From the NCBI GenBank assembly GCA_016839765.1, contig JAEOTP010000086.1:1-20197 (forward strand): a stretch of 20,197 nt of DNA, given 5' to 3'. Positions 2,987 through 16,784 of this stretch are shown one piece after another (the first letter of the stretch is position 1; each line of letters begins with the position of its first letter). The translations under genes and the position numbers were made by a program. The notes below the pieces were generated by a model. It was given only the letters and a program-made list of their open reading frames with translations, made no database searches and was not told the DNA's origin. The DNA is from Promethearchaeota archaeon (GTDB taxonomy: Archaea; Asgardarchaeota; Lokiarchaeia; Sigyniarchaeales; SOKP01).

Positions 2987-4906
2987 ATGGAACATTTTGA
3001 TTATAAAAGCTTAGGGCTAAAATGTGGTTTAGAAATCCATCAACAATTAGATACTGAAAAAAAATTATTTTGTAGATGCCCCACTGTACTTCAAGGTACA
3101 AGGGAACCAGATTTTACAATAAAACGGTATATGAGACCTGTGTTGGGAGAGATGGGCACATTTGATAAAGCTATGCTAACAGAATACGAAAAAGGAATGG
3201 ATATAGTTTATGAGGGATATAATGACGTTATTTGTACTTATGAATTGGATGACACTCCTCCTTTTTCATGTAATCAGGAAGCTCGAAAAATCGCTTTACA
3301 AATTGCATTGCTTTTAAATGCTAATATTATTGAAGAGATGCATGTCTGTAGAAAAAATTATCTGGATGGAAGTGTTCCAAGTGGATTTCAGAGAACTATG
3401 ATTCTCGGAACTGATGGTTTTATAACTTTAGCAAGTGGAAAAAAGATTAGAATAGATATATTAAGTCTGGAAGAGGAGGCTGCTAGGAAGATAAAAACTG
3501 AAACTAAAACTAATTATTTTCGGTTAGATAGATTAGGAATCCCATTGATAGAAGTTACTACTAAACCAGATATATCTCATCCTGATGAATGTAAAGAATG
3601 TGCTGAAAGAATAGGATTACTATTCTGGTCAACTAAAGTAAAGAAAGTTTTAGGTTCTATTCGTCAAGATGTTAACGTTAGCATTAAATCTGGTACAAGA
3701 ATTGAAATAAAAGGAGTCCAAAAATTAAGCTGGATACCTTCATTAATTAATAATGAAATTTCTCGTCAAATTAAATTAATTGAAATTAAAAACGATTTAG
3801 CCAAAAAAAAAATAAGTTCGGATGATATTACTAAAGATTTTATAGATTTATCCGAAAAAGTGAAAAATTCAAAATCAAATTTTATTTCACAGGGATTAAA
3901 ATCTGGAAAGAAATTATACGGGATTAGTTTTAAAGGATTTAAAGGAATTTTTGGAAAAGAATTAATGAAAGACTATAGGTTTGGAACAGAAGTAAGTGGT
4001 AAAGTAAAAATACTAACTGGATTAAAAGGAATCATACATTCTGATGAGAATCTCGAAAATTATGGTATTCCTAAAGAAGAAACTGAAAAGTTTAGAAAAT
4101 CTTTAAAATCTAATCCAAATGATTGCTTTATATTAGTTCTAGGAATAGAAAAAAACGTAAATAAAGCAATAAAAGTAATTATCAAAAGAGTTCAAATGGC
4201 TTTTGAGGGTGTGCCCCCAGAAACGAGGAGAGCGCTTGAGGACGGAACAACAGAATTTTTAAGGGAATTACATGGTGGAGCAAGATTATATCCCGATACA
4301 GATTCTAAAGCTATAATTAATACAACTAGTGAAATCGAAGAAATTAAAAATACTTTACCAAAATACCCTTGGGAAGTTATTAAAGATTATTCGAAAAAAT
4401 ACAATACTGAAGAACGTATGATAAAAGAATTAATTTTTGATGGCAATTTAGCCTTATTTGAAAAATTAATAAAAATTTATCCTGAAAACCCTACAATTAT
4501 ATTTACTACACTTTTAGAAACTACCACAGCATTAAGACGTGAGGGAAAGGATATAGACATAATTTCTGATCAAGATTATTTGGAAATCTTTCAAGAATTA
4601 AAGGATAAGAATATTGGTAAAGAAGCTATTGAGGAAATTATGGCTAGTAAAGCGGATTTTCCTAACTTATCAATAAAGCAAATAAAAGAAAAACTTGAAA
4701 TTGAAAGCATTTCAACCGAAGAATTAGAGAAGATTATTCGAAAAATTCTAGAAAAAAATATACAGATAATAAAAGAAAGGGAAATGAGAGCATTAGGACC
4801 ATTAATGGGAGAAATTATGAAGGAAGTTAGAGGTAAAATAGATGGTTCTATAGTCTCTAAAGAATTAAAAAATCAATTAGAAAATAAATTGAAGGAGCTG
4901 AAATAA
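2987..4906 (+). CDS. gatE: Glutamyl-tRNA(Gln) amidotransferase subunit E
   Basis: GLKCGLEIHQQL, KLFCRCP, DGSVPSGFQRT, LEEEAARK, LDRLGIPLIEVTT, IRQDVNVSI, EIKGVQ, GVPPETR, ARLYPDTD and C-terminal YqeY-like LMGEIMKEVRGKIDG. Confidence 0.98.
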   Translation: MEHFDYKSLGLKCGLEIHQQLDTEKKLFCRCPTVLQGTREPDFTIKRYMRPVLGEMGTFDKAMLTEYEKGMDIVYEGYNDVICTYELDDTPPFSCNQEARKIALQIALLLNANIIEEMHVCRKNYLDGSVPSGFQRTMILGTDGFITLASGKKIRIDILSLEEEAARKIKTETKTNYFRLDRLGIPLIEVTTKPDISHPDECKECAERIGLLFWSTKVKKVLGSIRQDVNVSIKSGTRIEIKGVQKLSWIPSLINNEISRQIKLIEIKNDLAKKKISSDDITKDFIDLSEKVKNSKSNFISQGLKSGKKLYGISFKGFKGIFGKELMKDYRFGTEVSGKVKILTGLKGIIHSDENLENYGIPKEETEKFRKSLKSNPNDCFILVLGIEKNVNKAIKVIIKRVQMAFEGVPPETRRALEDGTTEFLRELHGGARLYPDTDSKAIINTTSEIEEIKNTLPKYPWEVIKDYSKKYNTEERMIKELIFDGNLALFEKLIKIYPENPTIIFTTLLETTTALRREGKDIDIISDQDYLEIFQELKDKNIGKEAIEEIMASKADFPNLSIKQIKEKLEIESISTEELEKIIRKILEKNIQIIKEREMRALGPLMGEIMKEVRGKIDGSIVSKELKNQLENKLKELK

Positions 4907-6265
4907 ATGGAAGATAAATTAAAAGGTTATAAAGGAAAAGCCAAGGAATTCCTTAAAAAAAACAAAATTAACATCTGGGATATTATTGTGTTAAAGACAA
5001 AAAAAACTCAATTAGAAGGGATATTATTACCTCGATATGAACATTCTGCTCCAAATCTTATAGAAATAAAACTTGAAAATAATTATAATATCGGAATAAA
5101 TATTAATGAAATTACTGAAATAACAAAAGTCGGAAAAAGGGAAGCAAAGTACAAAATCCCAGAAAAAACATTCCCTAAAAACGACAAATTGCCAAGAGTT
5201 GAATTACTTGGCACAGGTGGAACGGTTGCTTCGAGATTAGACTATACTACAGGAGCAGTTATACCATCATTTACTCCAGGTGAGCTATTCAGTTCTGTCC
5301 CAGAATTAGCAGAAATATGCAATCTTGAATGTGAATTAGTATTTGAAATATTGTCTGAAAATATGAAACCAGAATACTGGCAAAAGTTGGCTGATAAAGT
5401 CAAAGAGGCCGCAAATTCAGGAATAGAAGGGGTTATCATTGGACATGGAACAGATACGATGTCTATCACAAGTGCCGCATTATCGTTCATGTTAAAGAAC
5501 CTATCAATTCCAGTGGTTCTAGTAGGTAGTCAACGGAGTTCTGATCGTCCCTCTTCTGATGCTGCTCTGAATCTAATAAACGCTGCTGTTGTTGCTACAT
5601 ATGATATAGCAGAAGTTGTCGTAACAATGTTAGGATCACCTTCACATGATTATGGATTAATTCATAGGGGAACTCTTGTAAGAAAAATGCATTCTTCTGT
5701 CAGAGATACCTTTCGAACAATAAATGATATCCCATTAGGAATGATTCGAAATCGACAAATTAAAATGTTTAAAAAAGATTATAAAAAGAAAGATAAGCAA
5801 GAAACAATAGCTCTCACGAAATTTGAAAAGAAAATCGCCATAGTTTATTCATATCCCGGTGTTGAGAATGAATTAATTGATTTTTATATAGATAATGGAT
5901 ATAAAGGAATTGTATTTGCTGGGACTGGATTAGGCCATGTGAGTACCACTATTTATAAATCAATTGAAAGAGCGATTCAAGAGGGATTAATTATCTTGAT
6001 GACAACTCAGACGCTACATGGTTTTGTTGGTATGGATGTATATTCCACTGGGAGAGAATTACAAAATTTAGGAGTAATTCCCGGAAAGAATATTCTACCT
6101 GAAGTCGCTTACGTAAAATTAGGTTGGGTCTTAGGACAAACTAATGATAAAAAGCAAATAAAAGAATTGTTACTTCTTAATATAGCTGGTGAATTTATAG
6201 AAAGAGAAATTCCAATTGCATTTAATTATAATATCGATGAACTATTAGAAAAAGGAAAATTATAA
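4907..6265 (+). CDS. gatD: Glutamyl-tRNA(Gln) amidotransferase subunit D
   Basis: Asparaginase-type motifs GTGGTVASRLDYTTG, HGTDTM, GSQRSSDRPSSD, VRKMHSS and GTGLGH. N-terminal IKLENNYNIG domain. Abuts gatE (TAAATG). Confidence 0.98.
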   Translation: MEDKLKGYKGKAKEFLKKNKINIWDIIVLKTKKTQLEGILLPRYEHSAPNLIEIKLENNYNIGININEITEITKVGKREAKYKIPEKTFPKNDKLPRVELLGTGGTVASRLDYTTGAVIPSFTPGELFSSVPELAEICNLECELVFEILSENMKPEYWQKLADKVKEAANSGIEGVIIGHGTDTMSITSAALSFMLKNLSIPVVLVGSQRSSDRPSSDAALNLINAAVVATYDIAEVVVTMLGSPSHDYGLIHRGTLVRKMHSSVRDTFRTINDIPLGMIRNRQIKMFKKDYKKKDKQETIALTKFEKKIAIVYSYPGVENELIDFYIDNGYKGIVFAGTGLGHVSTTIYKSIERAIQEGLIILMTTQTLHGFVGMDVYSTGRELQNLGVIPGKNILPEVAYVKLGWVLGQTNDKKQIKELLLLNIAGEFIEREIPIAFNYNIDELLEKGKL

Positions 6266-10840: not shown

Positions 10841-10946
10841 GGGCTATTGGCGCAGTCAGGTAGCGCAACCGGCTCTTAACCGGCAGGTCGGGGGTTCAAA
10901 AATTCGGTTAGAATCTCTCTAACGGTTGAAAATCCCCTATAGCCCG
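10841..10946 (+). tRNA. tRNA-Lys(CTT) with 32-nt intron at position 59/60 (10901-10932)
   Basis: Acceptor GGGCTAT/ATAGCCC. Anticodon loop CT-CTT-AA (10873-10879). The T-loop TTCAAA|T is restored after removing a BHB intron (central helix TTCA/TGAA, bulges AAA and AAT). Confidence 0.93.
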
Positions 10947-11003: not shown

Positions 11004-11921
11004 CTAAAAATTAAACAGTTTTTTCGTTTTATCAACTGTTTCAGAATCAAATTTTCTAAATAAGGAATAAGCAGTAATTGGTATAATACAACCACAATTG
11101 GAACATAAGAGTGATGAATTTCCCATGACACAAAACTTTTGCGTTCCATCAGGATAATAACTCCTTATTTCACCGGATTTAAATACACAATATGGTACAA
11201 ATTCTTTTGACATGTATACTTCTAACATTTTTTTGGAATAGAAAATAAAATCTCCATATTCACGCATTACTCTTAACATGGTTAAATTTGTTTTTTTTAA
11301 GATATTTCCTTTTAATAAAAGCGGGTCGTTAGGATAACCAGTATACATTAAGAAAACTAATCCAGAAGCACCATTCTCATAGGCAATTTTAGTAATATCT
11401 TCAATTTCATTATAATTTATTGCCATAATGGTTGTTGCAACCACCGGATTACTTTCCTGAACATTCTGTAAAACTTTGTCAAAAACCTTCACACCTCTTA
11501 TCTTATTATGAGTTTCCTTTGTACCATCTATACTTACCCAATATTTTGGTTGTTTATATCCATTAAATTGAGGTAACTTTATAACTCCATTTGATACAAC
11601 TTGAACTGAAGGGAAAACTTTAATCGCTTCTTTTATAACCTCTATTCTTAAAGTAGGTTCTCCACCAGTTAAAACAGCTACTTTTATTCCTAAATCTCTA
11701 TGATATTTAAAAAATTTAATCCATCCTTCTTTGGATAACTCTGTTCTTTTACTTTCTAATTCCATGGATGATAAGGAAAAATAACAATGCTTACATTTTA
11801 AATTACATTTCCAAGTTAAGTCATAATTCACATATAACGGAATTTTTTTTATTCTTGACTGTAAGATTGATAATCCCATAGAAATACTTCTTCTTATATT
11901 ATCTGGAGTAAAGAGTTTCAT
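11004..11921 (-). CDS. Radical SAM protein with C-terminal cysteine-rich (SPASM/twitch-like) extension; substrate unknown
   Basis: CNLKCKHC (CxxxCxxC), LTGGEPTLR, SNG, VSIDGTKETHNKIRG and C-terminal C...FCVMG...CSNCGC. Confidence 0.9.
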   Translation of the reverse strand: MKLFTPDNIRRSISMGLSILQSRIKKIPLYVNYDLTWKCNLKCKHCYFSLSSMELESKRTELSKEGWIKFFKYHRDLGIKVAVLTGGEPTLRIEVIKEAIKVFPSVQVVSNGVIKLPQFNGYKQPKYWVSIDGTKETHNKIRGVKVFDKVLQNVQESNPVVATTIMAINYNEIEDITKIAYENGASGLVFLMYTGYPNDPLLLKGNILKKTNLTMLRVMREYGDFIFYSKKMLEVYMSKEFVPYCVFKSGEIRSYYPDGTQKFCVMGNSSLLCSNCGCIIPITAYSLFRKFDSETVDKTKKLFNF

Positions 11922-12087: not shown

Positions 12088-12188
12088 CGCAGACGGAGGG
12101 ACTCGAACCCCCGAGCGCTTACGCGCACCGGCTTACTTGAATGATATACTACTCAAGGCCGGCGTCTTACCAGCTAGGCTACGTCTGC
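12088..12188 (-). tRNA. tRNA-Ser(TGA) with 18-nt canonical 37/38 intron (12134-12151)
   Basis: Minus strand: acceptor GCAGACG/CGTCTGC, G discriminator, anticodon stem CCGGC/GCCGG, loop CT-TGA-G|A, BHB helix CTTG/CAAG, long variable arm GCGC-GTAA-GCGC and T-loop TTCGAGT. Confidence 0.95.
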
Positions 12189-12903: not shown

Positions 12904-13140
12904 TTGCCTAAAAAGAGCGATAATTTGTTCACAAAAGCTATTTCTATTATCGGAAAATCAACCTATCATATCCTCTTAACCCAAATTCTCTATTTCGCAA
13001 TAGTATTTTCTATATATGGTGATCATTATAATCTTTGGATATGCGTTTTATATTTGTTAATTAATTGGGGATGCTGTATTCCTTTTGGTGTAGTTTGGTG
13101 GTACGCAGAAAAGAAAATACGAAATTATCGAAAAAGATAA
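12904..13140 (+). pseudogene. Short membrane-protein ORF resembling the C-terminus of acyltransferase-3 family proteins; probable fragment
   Basis: IGKSTYHILLTQ resembles the LGxxSYxIYLxH motif of acyltransferase_3, followed by two hydrophobic segments and WWYAEKK. Only 78 aa with a TTG start, versus roughly 350 aa for full members. Confidence 0.5.
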
Positions 13141-13265
13141 AATAAAATTAAACTACATTTTTCTGAATAAAAAAGATTGAAGCCCATATGGTTTTTCTAT
13201 AAGAATTCTTTCATTAATTCTATTTCTATTTAAATGAGATTAGTAAATTTAAAAGGATTAATAAG

Positions 13266-13348
13266 CGCAAATGGAGGGATTCGAACCCTCGAGTCCATTG
13301 GACACCGGTTTAGCAGACCGGCGCTCTACCAAGCTAAGCGACATTTGC
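13266..13348 (-). tRNA. tRNA-Ser(GCT)
   Basis: Minus strand: GCAAATG/CATTTGC acceptor, G discriminator, CCGGT-CT-GCT-AA-ACCGG anticodon arm, variable arm GTCC-AAT-GGAC and T-arm GAGGG-TTCGAAT-CCCTC. Confidence 0.97.
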
Positions 13349-13406
13349 TTTATAACTCTATTTAATTAATAACACAGAAAAATTTTAATACTTTTTGGAT
13401 TAAATA

Positions 13407-14246
13407 TTATGTTTTATCATCTTTCAGACCTAATTCATGCTTTTTAGACCAATAACCTCTAGAAGGACTTATGATTCCTAATTTCCTACACCACTTTCCT
13501 ACCGTACTATCAGAGACATGATAAATTTTCGCAATGTTAGATTTTGGAAGCTTCCATACTAGATTTTCTAATTCAGTTTTAGTCATTTTTAACTTTCTTT
13601 TATGGCTTCCTTTCCATGCATTTTCTTTTATATTTGCTATTCTCTCTGAACCTGTAGAAAATATATGCCTTTTTCTAGTCAAACTATTTTTATAATTGTC
13701 CAACATTTCATTAAATAATTCCTTTCCCAAATATAAATCATATCCTACACCTTTTCCTTGTTTTTGATGAATTTTAAAATCTAATTTAAATACCATTTTA
13801 ATTTGTTCTAAGAACTTTCTACTTCCCGATGTAATTTTTGTAATTCCCTCTGTACCATCTCCATCAAAAAATCCTAAAAGAAACGCTAAATACAAATCAC
13901 GATTTTGCAACTCAGGTAATTTAATAACTTTAGATTTCCTAGGTACAACACCTTGATTCATTAAGTCGTTAGTTAATTCCTTATTTCCTAAAATGATCCT
14001 GAGCATTCCATTTTTATCATTTAACTGAATATATGATTGATTGAATCCAATTGCATTAGCAAATTGATCTATCAATTGCTTGTCATACCTTTTAATTCTA
14101 ATCATTAATCTCCTTGTTCCTGACTTCCTCTTATCAATATTTATACAGCCATCAGCATATAAGAAGCCGAGCCAGTATGCTTTCTCTTTTGAATTGATCT
14201 TCTTAAAGTAATCATAACGAAGATTGGGGTGAAATTTTGATTTCAT
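13407..14246 (-). CDS. Free-standing double-motif LAGLIDADG endonuclease with C-terminal helix-turn-helix
   Basis: Motif 1 KAYWLGFLYADGCI, motif 2 AFLLGFFDGDG and linker GVVPRKS. C-terminal ELENLVWKLPKSNIAKIYHVSDSTVGKWCRKLGI..PSRGYW HTH. It has its own ATG and stop, with no intein or intron host. Confidence 0.9.
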   Translation of the reverse strand: MKSKFHPNLRYDYFKKINSKEKAYWLGFLYADGCINIDKRKSGTRRLMIRIKRYDKQLIDQFANAIGFNQSYIQLNDKNGMLRIILGNKELTNDLMNQGVVPRKSKVIKLPELQNRDLYLAFLLGFFDGDGTEGITKITSGSRKFLEQIKMVFKLDFKIHQKQGKGVGYDLYLGKELFNEMLDNYKNSLTRKRHIFSTGSERIANIKENAWKGSHKRKLKMTKTELENLVWKLPKSNIAKIYHVSDSTVGKWCRKLGIISPSRGYWSKKHELGLKDDKT

Positions 14247-14479
14247 ATAACTTATGAGTTAAATTTATTTTAAAAATTAAGTCTCTGTTTTGATTTTTCA
14301 ATAAATTTCTCTATTTTAGCTAAGAAGGATAACGTCTTACCAAAATTAATGGATTTGCTTAGAAAAATTAACATATATTTCTTTAGAGTGCAAATAAAAA
14401 ATAAAAAATAATTAATGTTTTGAATAATTAAACACAAATAACATTAAAATCATAATCAATACAAAATATAGGAAAATAA

Positions 14480-14555
14480 GGGCCCGTGGTCTAGTGGTTA
14501 TGACGTCGCGCTTACACCGCGAAGGTCCGGAGTTCAATCCTCCGCGGGCCCACCA
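14480..14555 (+). tRNA. tRNA-Val(TAC), CCA encoded
   Basis: GGGCCCG/CGGGCCC acceptor followed by ACCA. TCGCG-CT-TAC-AC-CGCGA anticodon arm. T-arm CGGAG-TTCAATC-CTCCG. Confidence 0.97.
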
Positions 14556-14562
14556 TTCTTTT

Positions 14563-15363
14563 CTAATTCTCTATTAATTTTTTAATATTGATTGGTCTTA
14601 TGGCGCTTAATTTGCAATTTCTTAAATTTTTTCCAATATCTGCAATAATACCAGGTGCCGAAGTATTATCTTTAAAAATAATTATATTTTCTAAAAATCC
14701 GTATCTATCTATTGCTACAATATCACGAAGATGACCTTTTCTTATCAAAGCTTTTTTAACTTGCCCTTTAGTTTCACCACTTACAAAAACAGCTTCAATA
14801 TTCTCATTTAAAATCTTTCTATAGAAATTTAAGGTTTTATGATCAATCTTACCTTGAATTTGCTTTTTCTCTCTATCAATATGCGTAATTTCAAAATATA
14901 TAGGAAAATTGTCAATAAAATCAAAAGCTTTTATAATTTCTTTTAAAGATTTTTCTTTACCATCACATAACTGTTCTCTTAAAACATGAAGGTTAATTAA
15001 AACATCGAGTTTGGGATTTAAAATCCCACAATCCACAAAAATTCCGAATCCAACCTTCCCCACATCTACCATTAATCCCTTATAGATATTGCCAACTGAC
15101 ACTTGATCATATTGATAAATTGTTCCAAATTCTTTTTTTAATAAGTTATAGACGAATAGTTCTTCTGGACCAAATATTTCTACTTCAAATCTATTGTCAA
15201 AGCTTCTTAACTTCTTTATTTTTACTTTTGTATTTGAAAAACCCTGTGTTTTCTCATTTAAATATTTGGAATACCTTAAGAATATATTTTTTCTTCTTTC
15301 TTTTGATGTAATGTTATAGATTTTATCGTTAAGTACTAGTTTTTTAACCATGAATAATAACAA
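14563..15363 (-). CDS. Conserved archaeal protein, DUF2110-like (S1/OB-fold-like central region)
   Basis: 266-aa ORF (likely start 15351, MVKKLVL). VGNIYKGLMVDVGKVGFGIFVDCGI and C-terminal KGHLRDIVAIDRYGFLE...APGIIADIG resemble DUF2110 from memory. Confidence 0.7.
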   Translation of the reverse strand: MLLFMVKKLVLNDKIYNITSKERRKNIFLRYSKYLNEKTQGFSNTKVKIKKLRSFDNRFEVEIFGPEELFVYNLLKKEFGTIYQYDQVSVGNIYKGLMVDVGKVGFGIFVDCGILNPKLDVLINLHVLREQLCDGKEKSLKEIIKAFDFIDNFPIYFEITHIDREKKQIQGKIDHKTLNFYRKILNENIEAVFVSGETKGQVKKALIRKGHLRDIVAIDRYGFLENIIIFKDNTSAPGIIADIGKNLRNCKLSAIRPINIKKLIEN

Positions 15364-15519
15364 GACTTTAGATTTTAATTGAGATAAATAGCATAATAAA
15401 TTGAACGTAAAATACTTTACTTAGAAATAGAATCCAAATTTTTGTTCTAATAAGATTTAAATTTAAATAATTTATGTTAAATTACACTATAATAAAAATT
15501 ATTAAATTTGATATAAGTT

Positions 15520-15891
15520 ATGGATGAGCAAAGATTTTATGATTTAGTTGCAGCTTTAAGGGAATATGAAGGAACTGAAGAAATCTTTTTATTAAGCCCT
15601 AGTGGGGAAATACTCTTTAAATCTGAAAATTTTCCCTTAACAAATGAAGAAGCCAAAGGAATTCTTACTGCATGGAAAGAAAAAGAACCCGCTCTTATAT
15701 TTCAGAATTATAGGTTCGCAATTTTAAAAAATGATGAAATTCAACTAGCAGCGAAAAATGTTACAGGTGGTAAAGGGAATATTGTTGGGTCAATAACGAA
15801 AGAAGGAGATTATCTTGTTGCCCACACTAGAGATGAGGGAATGATCTTAATAGAATGGTCAATTTTCATTAACAAAGTTGCATGGAGTTAA
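15520..15891 (+). CDS. Asgard profilin-like protein
   Basis: 123 aa. The order helix - IFLLSPSGEILFKSENF - helix - EPALIFQNYRFAILKNDEIQLAAKNVTGGKGNIVG - YLVAH - C-terminal helix matches the remembered pattern of Asgard profilins (GEIIYQSxNW...EPSIIIQGVKY...RLIATNVGGQGHIVG). Confidence 0.8.
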   Translation: MDEQRFYDLVAALREYEGTEEIFLLSPSGEILFKSENFPLTNEEAKGILTAWKEKEPALIFQNYRFAILKNDEIQLAAKNVTGGKGNIVGSITKEGDYLVAHTRDEGMILIEWSIFINKVAWS

Positions 15892-16058
15892 AATAATTTC
15901 TCTTTTAAAATTATCTAAATCATAGGGTATTGAATAAGTATTGTCTTTTTTTTAAAAAATTAAAAAAAAATATAAATTGAATTATTTATTACTTCAATTT
16001 AATTAGTAAAAAAATAATGTAAATAAATTTTAATTAAAAAATATAAAAGGAGATTATC

Positions 16059-16784
16059 ATGTTCCAGCAAGCAGGAAGAGGTTATGATATGGCAATAACT
16101 CAATTCTCACCTGAAGGGCGTCTATTTCAAGTGGAATATGCAATAGAAGCGGTTCGTAGGGGTACAACCGCAATTGTTTGTAGAAATAAACAATCTGTTG
16201 TATTTGCTGTGGAAAAAAAAAGTTCTGAGTTACAAGAAGTCTTAGGCTCAGAAAAAATATTTAAAATTGATAATCACATTGGAGTAGCTATTGCTGGACT
16301 TACAGCAGATGCTCGTGTTTTGGTAGATAGAGCTAGAGTACAAGCTCAGGTAAACCTTCTCAATTATGATGAAACTATCTCAGTGAAGGATTCTACTTTA
16401 AATATTTGTGAATATCTACAATTATTTACCCAAAATGCGGGCGTTAGACCTTTTGGAGTGAGTTTCCTGATAGCTGGAATAGATTCCGATGGAAAAGCTT
16501 CCTTGTATCTAACAGACCCAAGTGGAGCTATGTGGGGATATAAAGCTTTTGCAATTGGTTCAGGAGCGTCTGAAGCAAGAGCTTACCTTGAAGAACATTA
16601 TAATGAAGATATTAATGATGAGGATTTGAAATTACTACCTTTAAGAACCCTAAAAGAATTAATGGGTGATAATTTAAATAAAAACACATGTGATGTAGCT
16701 TATATTTTAAAAGATGATGAAAAATTTAAATTATTGAATTTGGAAGAAAAGGAAGAATTATTAAATAAATTACAAAGTTCTTAA
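16059..16784 (+). CDS. psmA: 20S proteasome alpha subunit
   Basis: GYDMAITQFSPEGRLFQVEYAIEAV signature, AGLTADARVL, GVRPFGVSFLIAG, TDPSG and AIGSG. Upstream AGGAG Shine-Dalgarno-like sequence. Confidence 0.98.
   Translation: MFQQAGRGYDMAITQFSPEGRLFQVEYAIEAVRRGTTAIVCRNKQSVVFAVEKKSSELQEVLGSEKIFKIDNHIGVAIAGLTADARVLVDRARVQAQVNLLNYDETISVKDSTLNICEYLQLFTQNAGVRPFGVSFLIAGIDSDGKASLYLTDPSGAMWGYKAFAIGSGASEARAYLEEHYNEDINDEDLKLLPLRTLKELMGDNLNKNTCDVAYILKDDEKFKLLNLEEKEELLNKLQSS

Follow-up and report, generated by a model that had tools for sequence, protein, structure and literature searches.

Free-standing homing endonucleases that drag neighboring genes along with them are textbook elements of phages and organelles. 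Here we describe a locus in a Promethearchaeota archaeon (GenBank assembly GCA_016839765.1; 3.32 Mb, 29.7% G+C, 96% complete; labelled G000 in comparisons) where a free-standing LAGLIDADG endonuclease gene lies amid tRNA genes of a cellular chromosome. The window analyzed is the entire 20.2-kb contig JAEOTP010000086.1. On balance, and with some reserve, we read positions 13163 to 14463 as a homing-endonuclease cassette that would cut nuclease-free alleles and bring in a whole replacement for an essential tRNA gene. In the literature searched, we found no paper on free-standing homing endonucleases dragging neighbors at Asgard archaeal tRNA genes, and this arrangement was not found described.

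The closest functional analogue of the cassette is SegB, a GIY-YIG homing endonuclease whose free-standing gene lies in the tRNA gene cluster of phage T4 (PMC2330249). The 27-bp SegB site includes a conserved tRNA T-arm motif, and SegB homing carries the nuclease gene along with neighboring tRNA genes and displaces the markers of the recipient's tRNA region (PMC2330249). Both systems place a free-standing nuclease gene amid tRNA genes. They differ in that SegB is a GIY-YIG enzyme in a phage genome, whereas the present enzyme joins LAGLIDADG motifs to a helix-turn-helix (HTH) and resides in a cellular archaeal chromosome. The tRNA linked to it is moreover inverted and is the sole, presumably essential, copy found.

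A second parallel is offered by the mORFs of fungal mitochondria (Allomyces atp6; Glomus atp6, atp9, cox2, and nad3), which bring with them a substitute gene end that is more divergent than the native copy (PMC3630166). As in the cassette, an endonuclease open reading frame (ORF), often of the LAGLIDADG type, moves with a foreign replacement for the host gene sequence that it disrupts. However, mORFs replace no more than the C-terminal end of a protein-coding gene, whose native end stays, whereas the cassette holds a complete inverted tRNA gene and no native remnant was found. In Caldiarchaeum subterraneum, a small mobile element at tRNA-Thr(GGU) is described as the cause of population-level heterogeneity of the locus, with alleles that differ in intron content (PMC3293823). 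There, the element codes for a recombinase and a 5' tRNA fragment is left behind; the cassette, in contrast, encodes a LAGLIDADG nuclease and no recombinase, and has no supported fragment. The archaeal intron- or intein-encoded enzymes I-DmoI, I-Tsp061I, and PI-PfuI share their fold and catalytic motifs with the nuclease. Unlike them, it lies outside an rRNA intron or intein, has an extra C-terminal HTH, and adjoins tRNA genes.

A sequence-only reading of the window had drawn attention to this gene. It suggested a selfish element that split or duplicated a tRNA-Ser gene and supplied a resistant copy, with a domesticated regulator as an alternative. In the following sections, these proposals are considered where the evidence bears on them.

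Replacement of the resident tRNA-Ser(GCT) locus

The locus was compared in 32 genomes of the genus. The common layout consists of an acyltransferase gene or its remnant (+ strand), tRNA-Ser(GCT) (+), a spacer of ~18 nt, tRNA-Val(TAC) (+), and a DUF2110 gene (-). This resident layout was present in 24 cargo-free genomes and in 3 genomes with other cargo in the spacer, and the cassette was present in 5 (G000, G019, G063, G026, and G034). In the cassette genomes, the resident tRNA-Ser gene and the spacer upstream of it are absent, and the cassette stands in their place in the opposite orientation.

The borders of the cassette were delineated using G022 and G065, two very close relatives (93 to 98% nucleotide identity in the flanks) that have the resident layout. 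In a BLAST comparison of the window with G022, homology ended at 13162 and resumed at 14464, and the same block was unaligned in G065. The cassette, 1,301 nt in length, replaces 205 nt of these relatives (L071, positions 1194 to 1398) that contain the resident tRNA-Ser(GCT), with its D-arm intron of ~20 nt, in tandem with tRNA-Val. It is composed of an inverted tRNA-Ser(GCT) without a D-arm intron, the nuclease gene, and the spacer upstream of the nuclease. At the right breakpoint (14463/14464), the resident tRNA-Ser has its 3' end no more than a few nucleotides away. Empty alleles of the kind sought in relatives were found in G022, G065, and other nuclease-free genomes.

The resident tRNA-Ser(GCT) was replaced whole. 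No remnant of it was detected on either strand at 13141 to 13265 or 14247 to 14479 using BLAST and nhmmer with a tRNA-Ser profile, and no leftover was found on the + strand beside tRNA-Val. The suggested splitting or duplication of a tRNA-Ser gene does not describe this locus; no fragment of the replaced gene is left. Transposon-like ends were also ruled out; neither terminal inverted nor direct repeats occur at the borders, where only AT-rich noise was seen.

A single-chain LAGLIDADG endonuclease with a C-terminal HTH

The nuclease gene (13407 to 14246, - strand; 279 aa) is a free-standing ORF. It has no Hint or intein features, in agreement with the earlier description of an endonuclease outside any intron or intein. 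The protein matched the Pfam families LAGLIDADG_3 (2.6e-10) and LAGLIDADG_1 (3.4e-7), with a weak match to HTH_6 at residues 232 to 258; NCBIfam provided no family for it. An AlphaFold model (pLDDT, 89.8) displays two alpha-beta-beta-alpha-beta-beta-alpha domains in a pseudo-dimeric arrangement, followed by a linker helix and a three-helix HTH. The first LAGLIDADG motif (14148 to 14180, -; residues 23 to 33, AYWLGFLYADG) lies on a model helix at residues 20 to 32 and contains D32 (YADG). The second (13854 to 13889, -; residues 120 to 131, LAFLLGFFDGDG) lies on a helix at residues 116 to 130 and contains D130 (FDGDG). Both aspartates are predicted to be catalytic. The HTH module (13482 to 13580, -; residues 223 to 255) is formed by helices at residues 223 to 232, 235 to 241, and 246 to 255.

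The two catalytic-motif acids and the C-terminal HTH noticed in the sequence-only reading were thus recovered, and they are conserved. In an alignment of 38 free-standing nuclease homologues (alignment A1), D32 and D130 were each retained in at least 90% of the sequences. G33, G129, and G131 were invariant, as were K104, S188, R191-K192-R193, C253, P261, and W266, and the SLPRKR/HTH tail was conserved among the homologues. The best Foldseek matches of the model were I-AniI, PI-PfuI, I-Tsp061I, and I-DmoI (E values of 1e-6 to 1e-4). By sequence, the nearest solved structures were an I-DmoI/I-CreI chimera (1mow; E = 2e-4) and I-Tsp061I (2dch; E = 4e-3). Among phage protein families, the nuclease matched phrog_4645, annotated as "endonuclease" (1.7e-30), and its residues 175 to 266 matched the C-terminal part of phrog_15471, annotated as an "HNH endonuclease" family. 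Because of this resemblance to the tail of a different nuclease family, the C-terminal part suggests a modular DNA-binding domain of nucleases. A viral origin of the gene was considered and rejected, as the closest relative in IMG/VR is only 35% identical.

A TATA-like box, seen by inspection 17 to 30 nt ahead of the nuclease ATG, may represent the promoter of the gene. The dN/dS ratios of 0.23 (versus G019) and 0.14 (versus G026) show that the gene is kept functional by purifying selection where it is intact. The single-chain LAGLIDADG enzyme is probably active.

The same architecture raises the alternative of a domesticated DNA-binding protein, in which a LAGLIDADG scaffold with an HTH would serve in regulation, perhaps of the neighboring tRNA genes, instead of as a nuclease. 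The bacterial regulator WhiA, itself derived from a LAGLIDADG protein, shows the same domain order, with an HTH behind two LAGLIDADG-like domains, and a matching fold. WhiA structures ranked 32 and 33 among the Foldseek matches, and the purifying selection across a long divergence fits a regulator. However, WhiA is said, in 2009 work by Kaiser et al., to have lost the LAGLIDADG catalytic acids, which the nuclease and its homologues retain. No WhiA Pfam domains (WhiA_N, LAGLIDADG_WhiA, and HTH_WhiA) were detected in the nuclease. The distribution of the gene, described below, is a further difference from WhiA.

A foreign tRNA-Ser(GCT) linked to the nuclease

The tRNA-Ser(GCT) of the cassette (13266 to 13348, - strand; Rfam score, 61.5 bits) lacks a D-arm intron, has the acceptor sequence GCAAAUG, and is inverted relative to the resident layout. 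As previously noted, it is co-oriented with the nuclease gene, whose stop codon precedes it by 58 nt. It is the single Ser(GCT) gene found in this 96%-complete genome and should therefore be essential for the decoding of AGY codons.

In three lineages, the closest relatives that lack the nuclease have a tRNA-Ser(GCT) whose acceptor stem is not that of the linked gene. The acceptor is GCAAAUG in G000 versus GCUCAGG in G022 and G065, and GCAAAUG in G026 versus GCUCAGG in G032. In G034 it is GCUCAGG, versus GCAAUCG in G011 and GCAAAUG in G031. These differences indicate that the linked tRNA arrived with the cassette, in keeping with the co-transfer expected of intronless homing of the T4 Seg/Mob type, and the idea of a nuclease that travels with its own copy of tRNA-Ser(GCT) was borne out in this respect. 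The acceptor stem was discarded as a cassette-specific mark, since each of the three acceptor types is seen in resident alleles as well.

The D-arm intron was present in none of the five cassette tRNAs and in 22 of the 24 cargo-free resident alleles. Because there are just three independent cassette lineages, we regard this pattern as an association rather than proof. Resident alleles of the G024/G035 type lack the intron. In G022 and G065, the resident tRNA-Ser(GCT) has an insert of ~20 nt at the junction of the D stem and the anticodon stem. Noncanonical inserts of this size and position were found in L071 (1292 to 1397) and in 21 other genomes of the genus. The exact site of the insert is ambiguous owing to a repeated GCG, and some genomes have an additional T-loop insert in the resident tRNA-Ser(GCT). 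ARAGORN mislabelled the insert-bearing genes as Gly, Arg, or Ser(GGA).

The 58-nt spacer between the tRNA and the nuclease gene (13349 to 13406, -) contains an AT-rich box at ~13359 to 13372, and its sequence is conserved in G019, G063, and G026. The deletion that removed most of the nuclease gene in G063 stops at 13467 and spares the spacer. The AT-rich box is probably the promoter of the linked tRNA itself.

Patchy distribution and decay within the genus

Members of the nuclease family were detected in 23 of 36 genomes of the genus, with a copy at this locus in five. The gene at the locus is intact in G000, G019 (90% amino acid identity), and G026 (70% amino acid identity). G063 has a 925-nt deletion (13467 to 14391) that left the last 20 codons (including the stop codon), the spacer, and the tRNA. 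In G034, only nuclease residues 192 to 268 remain (53% identity), together with a stop codon. Such degenerate copies in two lineages are expected of a cycle of invasion and decay.

The distribution of the cassette is at odds with the phylogeny of its flanks. On a protein tree of three neighboring genes, at least four changes are needed to account for it, and resident alleles occur in G032 (the sister of G026) as well as in G011 and G031 (the sisters of G034). A DNA tree was generated from 3.9 kb of genes located 1.6 to 6 kb away from the cassette. On this tree, G065, which carries a resident allele, is the sister of G000 plus G063, and the grouping of the three cassette genomes as one clade was rejected (approximately unbiased [AU] test, p = 5e-5). 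Three separate lineages within the genus carry the cassette, in conflict with the flank phylogeny.

This patchiness also bears on the regulator alternative. Most genomes in the genus lack the gene, it is deleted or decayed in G063 and G034 while the tRNA is retained, and each genome has between zero and eight family matches, some of them in long open frames that could be inteins. WhiA is universal, whereas the nuclease is patchy, multicopy, and decaying. Together with the catalytic acids retained in its homologues, these features make a domesticated regulator quite improbable. The description of the gene as a selfish element and not a housekeeping regulator held up against the genomes of its relatives.

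Homologues at tRNA genes in other Asgard lineages

A search for the nuclease family retrieved 854 homologues at an E value of ≤1e-10. Every source-given name among the 120 matches listed belonged to an Asgard lineage. In representative genomes, the best 80 loci included 19 with a tRNA gene within 1.4 kb, compared with an estimated chance expectation of ~4. The same Lys(CTT)/Ser(TGA)/Ser(GCT)/Val(TAC) cluster houses the closest homologues (47 to 55% identity), whose records are labelled Hodarchaeota, Helarchaeota, or other Promethearchaeota. The association with tRNA genes thus recurs among the closest homologues surveyed. Two of them (L106 and L107; 54 to 55% identity) follow tRNA-Ser(TGA) and tRNA-Lys(CTT), with the Ser(GCT)-Val(TAC) pair ~1.2 kb away. 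A Helarchaeota-labelled genome encodes two copies (47 to 49%), one by tRNA-Val(TAC) and the other by tRNA-Ser(GCT), and the homologue in L144 adjoins tRNA-Ser(TGA). Other nuclease subfamilies adjoin tRNA-Phe, tRNA-Ala, tRNA-Arg, or tRNA-Leu.

Two unusual tRNA calls near homologues were resolved. An apparent partial tRNA upstream of the L107 homologue, a candidate remnant, proved to be a complete tRNA-Lys(CTT) gene interrupted by a T-loop intron (L107, 3623 to 3850; likewise L106, 3603 to 3850), to which Rfam gives a partial match only. In the Promethearchaeati LC30 record (L132, 3303 to 5827), ARAGORN reported a tRNA-Ile split by a 2,451-nt insert. This proved to be a misjoining of a complete tRNA and a separate 3' fragment, and there is no giant intron. 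The 40%-identical homologue (ORF, 3794 to 4918) lies there between a complete two-intron tRNA with an encoded CCA and the 3' tRNA fragment, which share the same acceptor strand; the tRNA sequences are on the strand opposite to the ORF.

Three members of the genus have other genes in the Ser/Val spacer. That of G004 encodes a 630-aa protein (L266, 1155 to 3047) whose C-terminal part is a LAGLIDADG_3 domain, beside an intron-bearing tRNA-Ser(GCT); the protein escaped detection with the nuclease query. In G029 (L264, 1198 to 2550) and G017 (L265), the spacer contains a 450-aa ORF of unassigned family that has weak HTH matches and showed no match in PDB or PHROG. The tRNA-Ser(GCT) genes of G029 and G017 are not inverted, lack the D-arm insert, and have the foreign acceptor GCUCAGG.

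Proposed active homing and the alternative of passive spread

The reading that we favor would have the following course. The nuclease would cut alleles that lack it, either within the tRNA-Ser/tRNA-Val tandem or adjacent to it, and repair would copy the cassette from a cassette-bearing genome, with the acyltransferase-gene remnant on one side and tRNA-Val/DUF2110 on the other serving as homology arms. Because the break would destroy an essential tRNA gene, the cassette would supply a substitute. Since the substitute is then essential in turn, later deletions could remove the nuclease gene only, as in G063.

Several observations weigh against this reading. The cassette has only three independent lineages. 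The synonymous divergence (dS) of the nuclease gene (0.19 versus G019 and 1.37 versus G026) is like that of the flanking genes, so prolonged vertical inheritance, combined with allele sorting or with ordinary recombination, might explain much of the pattern without active homing. The age of the nuclease is compatible with long residence and allele turnover, and recent jumps are not required. At 14480 to 16350, G000 and G019 are 98.8% identical, against a background of 92 to 96%, in the one clear recombination tract, which starts at tRNA-Val, at the right edge of the cassette. The cassette itself is ~92% identical between the two genomes, so this recombination did not carry it, and the tract was rejected as a homing footprint. 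In the comparison of G000 with G063, identity falls from 97 to 99% to ~94% over 14563 to 15720. The unrelated cargo in G029, G017, and G004 indicates that the spacer may be a general insertion hot spot. Finally, cleavage, its target site, and the immunity of the linked tRNA are features that we infer, whereas the replacement, its patchy and discordant distribution, the foreign linked tRNA, the decay, and the selection are documented here.

The same observations can be assembled into the main rival account, in which the nuclease, whether active elsewhere or inactive, landed once in a generally recombinogenic or insertion-prone spacer and was then a passive passenger, with ordinary homologous recombination or incomplete lineage sorting shuffling the alleles among species and no cutting at this locus. 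The 450-aa ORF and the 630-aa LAGLIDADG_3 protein in the same spacer, the match between nuclease and flank dS, and the recombination tract that abuts the cassette without carrying it all fit such a history. So does the presence of indel genes in further spacers of the cluster, such as the radical SAM gene at 11004 to 11921. However, two of the three cargo types have LAGLIDADG domains, which points to targeting by endonucleases. The conserved catalytic acids and purifying selection, the position of the closest homologues from other Asgard lineages in the same tRNA cluster, and a linked tRNA that is foreign in each of the three lineages also speak against a mere passenger, which we regard as unlikely.

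The proposed tRNA-Ser relic upstream of the nuclease

The sequence-only reading had placed the decayed 5' half of a tRNA-Ser at 14315 to 14360 (-), implying an insertion into or duplication of tRNA-Ser with the intact downstream copy supplied by the element. The string exists, and AAGCAAAT, TGGTAAGACG, and GCTAAA do occur in the tRNAs named for them. We evaluated the segment using Smith-Waterman alignment against dinucleotide shuffles, a genome-wide ungapped scan, Rfam, nhmmer with a tRNA-Ser profile, and comparison with orthologues. Its match to Ser(GCT) was no better than those of shuffled sequences (p = 0.4 to 0.9), and in the genome-wide scan ~1.0 equal match is expected per spacer.

The likeness to Ser(TGA) is closer in part. 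The 10-mer TGGTAAGACG is shared with that gene, and the segment matches its first 34 nt at 19 of 34 positions without gaps and with the correct D-loop spacing. This match is nominally rare (0.005 expected per spacer; shuffle p of 0.001 to 0.003; about 0.001 to 0.005 over both measures), and p is 0.06 to 0.33 over the four references tried. Fragments of tRNA genes beside mobile elements have also been described (Sugahara 2012, PMC3293823). However, what the segment resembles is Ser(TGA), whereas the gene replaced was Ser(GCT), and the latter, which stood on the other strand beside tRNA-Val, left no trace. The scans revealed no tRNA at 14315 to 14360 with Rfam at E ≤ 10 or with nhmmer --max at E ≤ 100. 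In the 90%-identical cassette of G019, the orthologous 34-mer matches at 15 of 34 positions, a chance level (1.1 expected), and the whole segment is absent in G026, whose nuclease is a 70% orthologue. The relic was rejected on these grounds. The resemblance is probably due to chance in a fast-evolving spacer, with a very decayed Ser(TGA)-like fragment conceivable in a formal sense. We give very little credence to an origin of the locus by insertion into, or duplication of, tRNA-Ser.

Neighboring genes of the tRNA cluster

tRNA-Val(TAC) (14480 to 14555, +), which begins 16 nt past the end of the cassette, forms the right flank common to cassette and resident alleles. A D-loop intron in this gene is polymorphic, being present in G026 (L065) and G011 (L088) and absent in G032 (L094), the sister of G026, and in G000. 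On the left flank, a 78-aa ORF (12904 to 13140, +) is what is left of an Acyl_transf_3 membrane-protein gene (o10b) and corresponds to its C-terminal end. An intact 391-aa homologue is encoded in G004 (L266, 3324 to 4499), and the gene is split into two in G029. Compared with its close relatives, G000 also shows a deletion of 30 nt here.

Farther to the left, tRNA-Ser(TGA) (12088 to 12188, -), the source of the 10-mer TGGTAAGACG, contains an 18-nt anticodon-loop intron; the gene was detected by Rfam and went unreported in a default ARAGORN run. Between it and tRNA-Lys(CTT) (10841 to 10946) lies the radical SAM gene (305 aa; 11004 to 11921, -). This gene is restricted to G000 and G019, with a 39-aa fragment in G063. 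In G026, the two tRNA genes are 31 nt apart, making the radical SAM gene a further indel gene in a spacer of the cluster.

Implications for tRNA introns in Asgard archaea

tRNA introns have been proposed by Randau and Söll to block elements that target tRNA genes (reviewed in PMC4090602). A 2026 census of Asgard tRNA introns tested for mobile elements near intron gains and reported no enrichment, and homing endonucleases were unmentioned (10.64898/2026.10.13.758758). The present locus offers a natural experiment in this context, in which the tRNA-Ser(GCT) of nearly identical genomes is either the resident gene with its intron or a foreign sole copy that is linked to the nuclease and lacks the D-arm intron. 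It also illustrates how a selfish gene can become hard to delete through its physical tie to an essential tRNA.

We tentatively raise the broader possibility, about which we remain doubtful, that homing with whole-gene replacement drives the turnover of tRNA alleles and introns in Asgard archaea, the nuclease swapping the resident tRNA-Ser(GCT) for a substitute without the D-arm intron. If this were true, the D-arm intron would be either a feature recognized by the enzyme or a resistance determinant that breaks the target, as in the Randau-Söll idea (PMC4090602). Several nuclease families in competition for the tRNA-Ser/tRNA-Val junction would turn tRNA clusters into arenas of homing, and there would be a route by which tRNA introns are lost and gained that the 2026 census did not test. 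The locus bears on intron gain and loss in the heavily interrupted tRNA genes of Asgard archaea and on a possible protective role of tRNA introns against tRNA-targeting elements.

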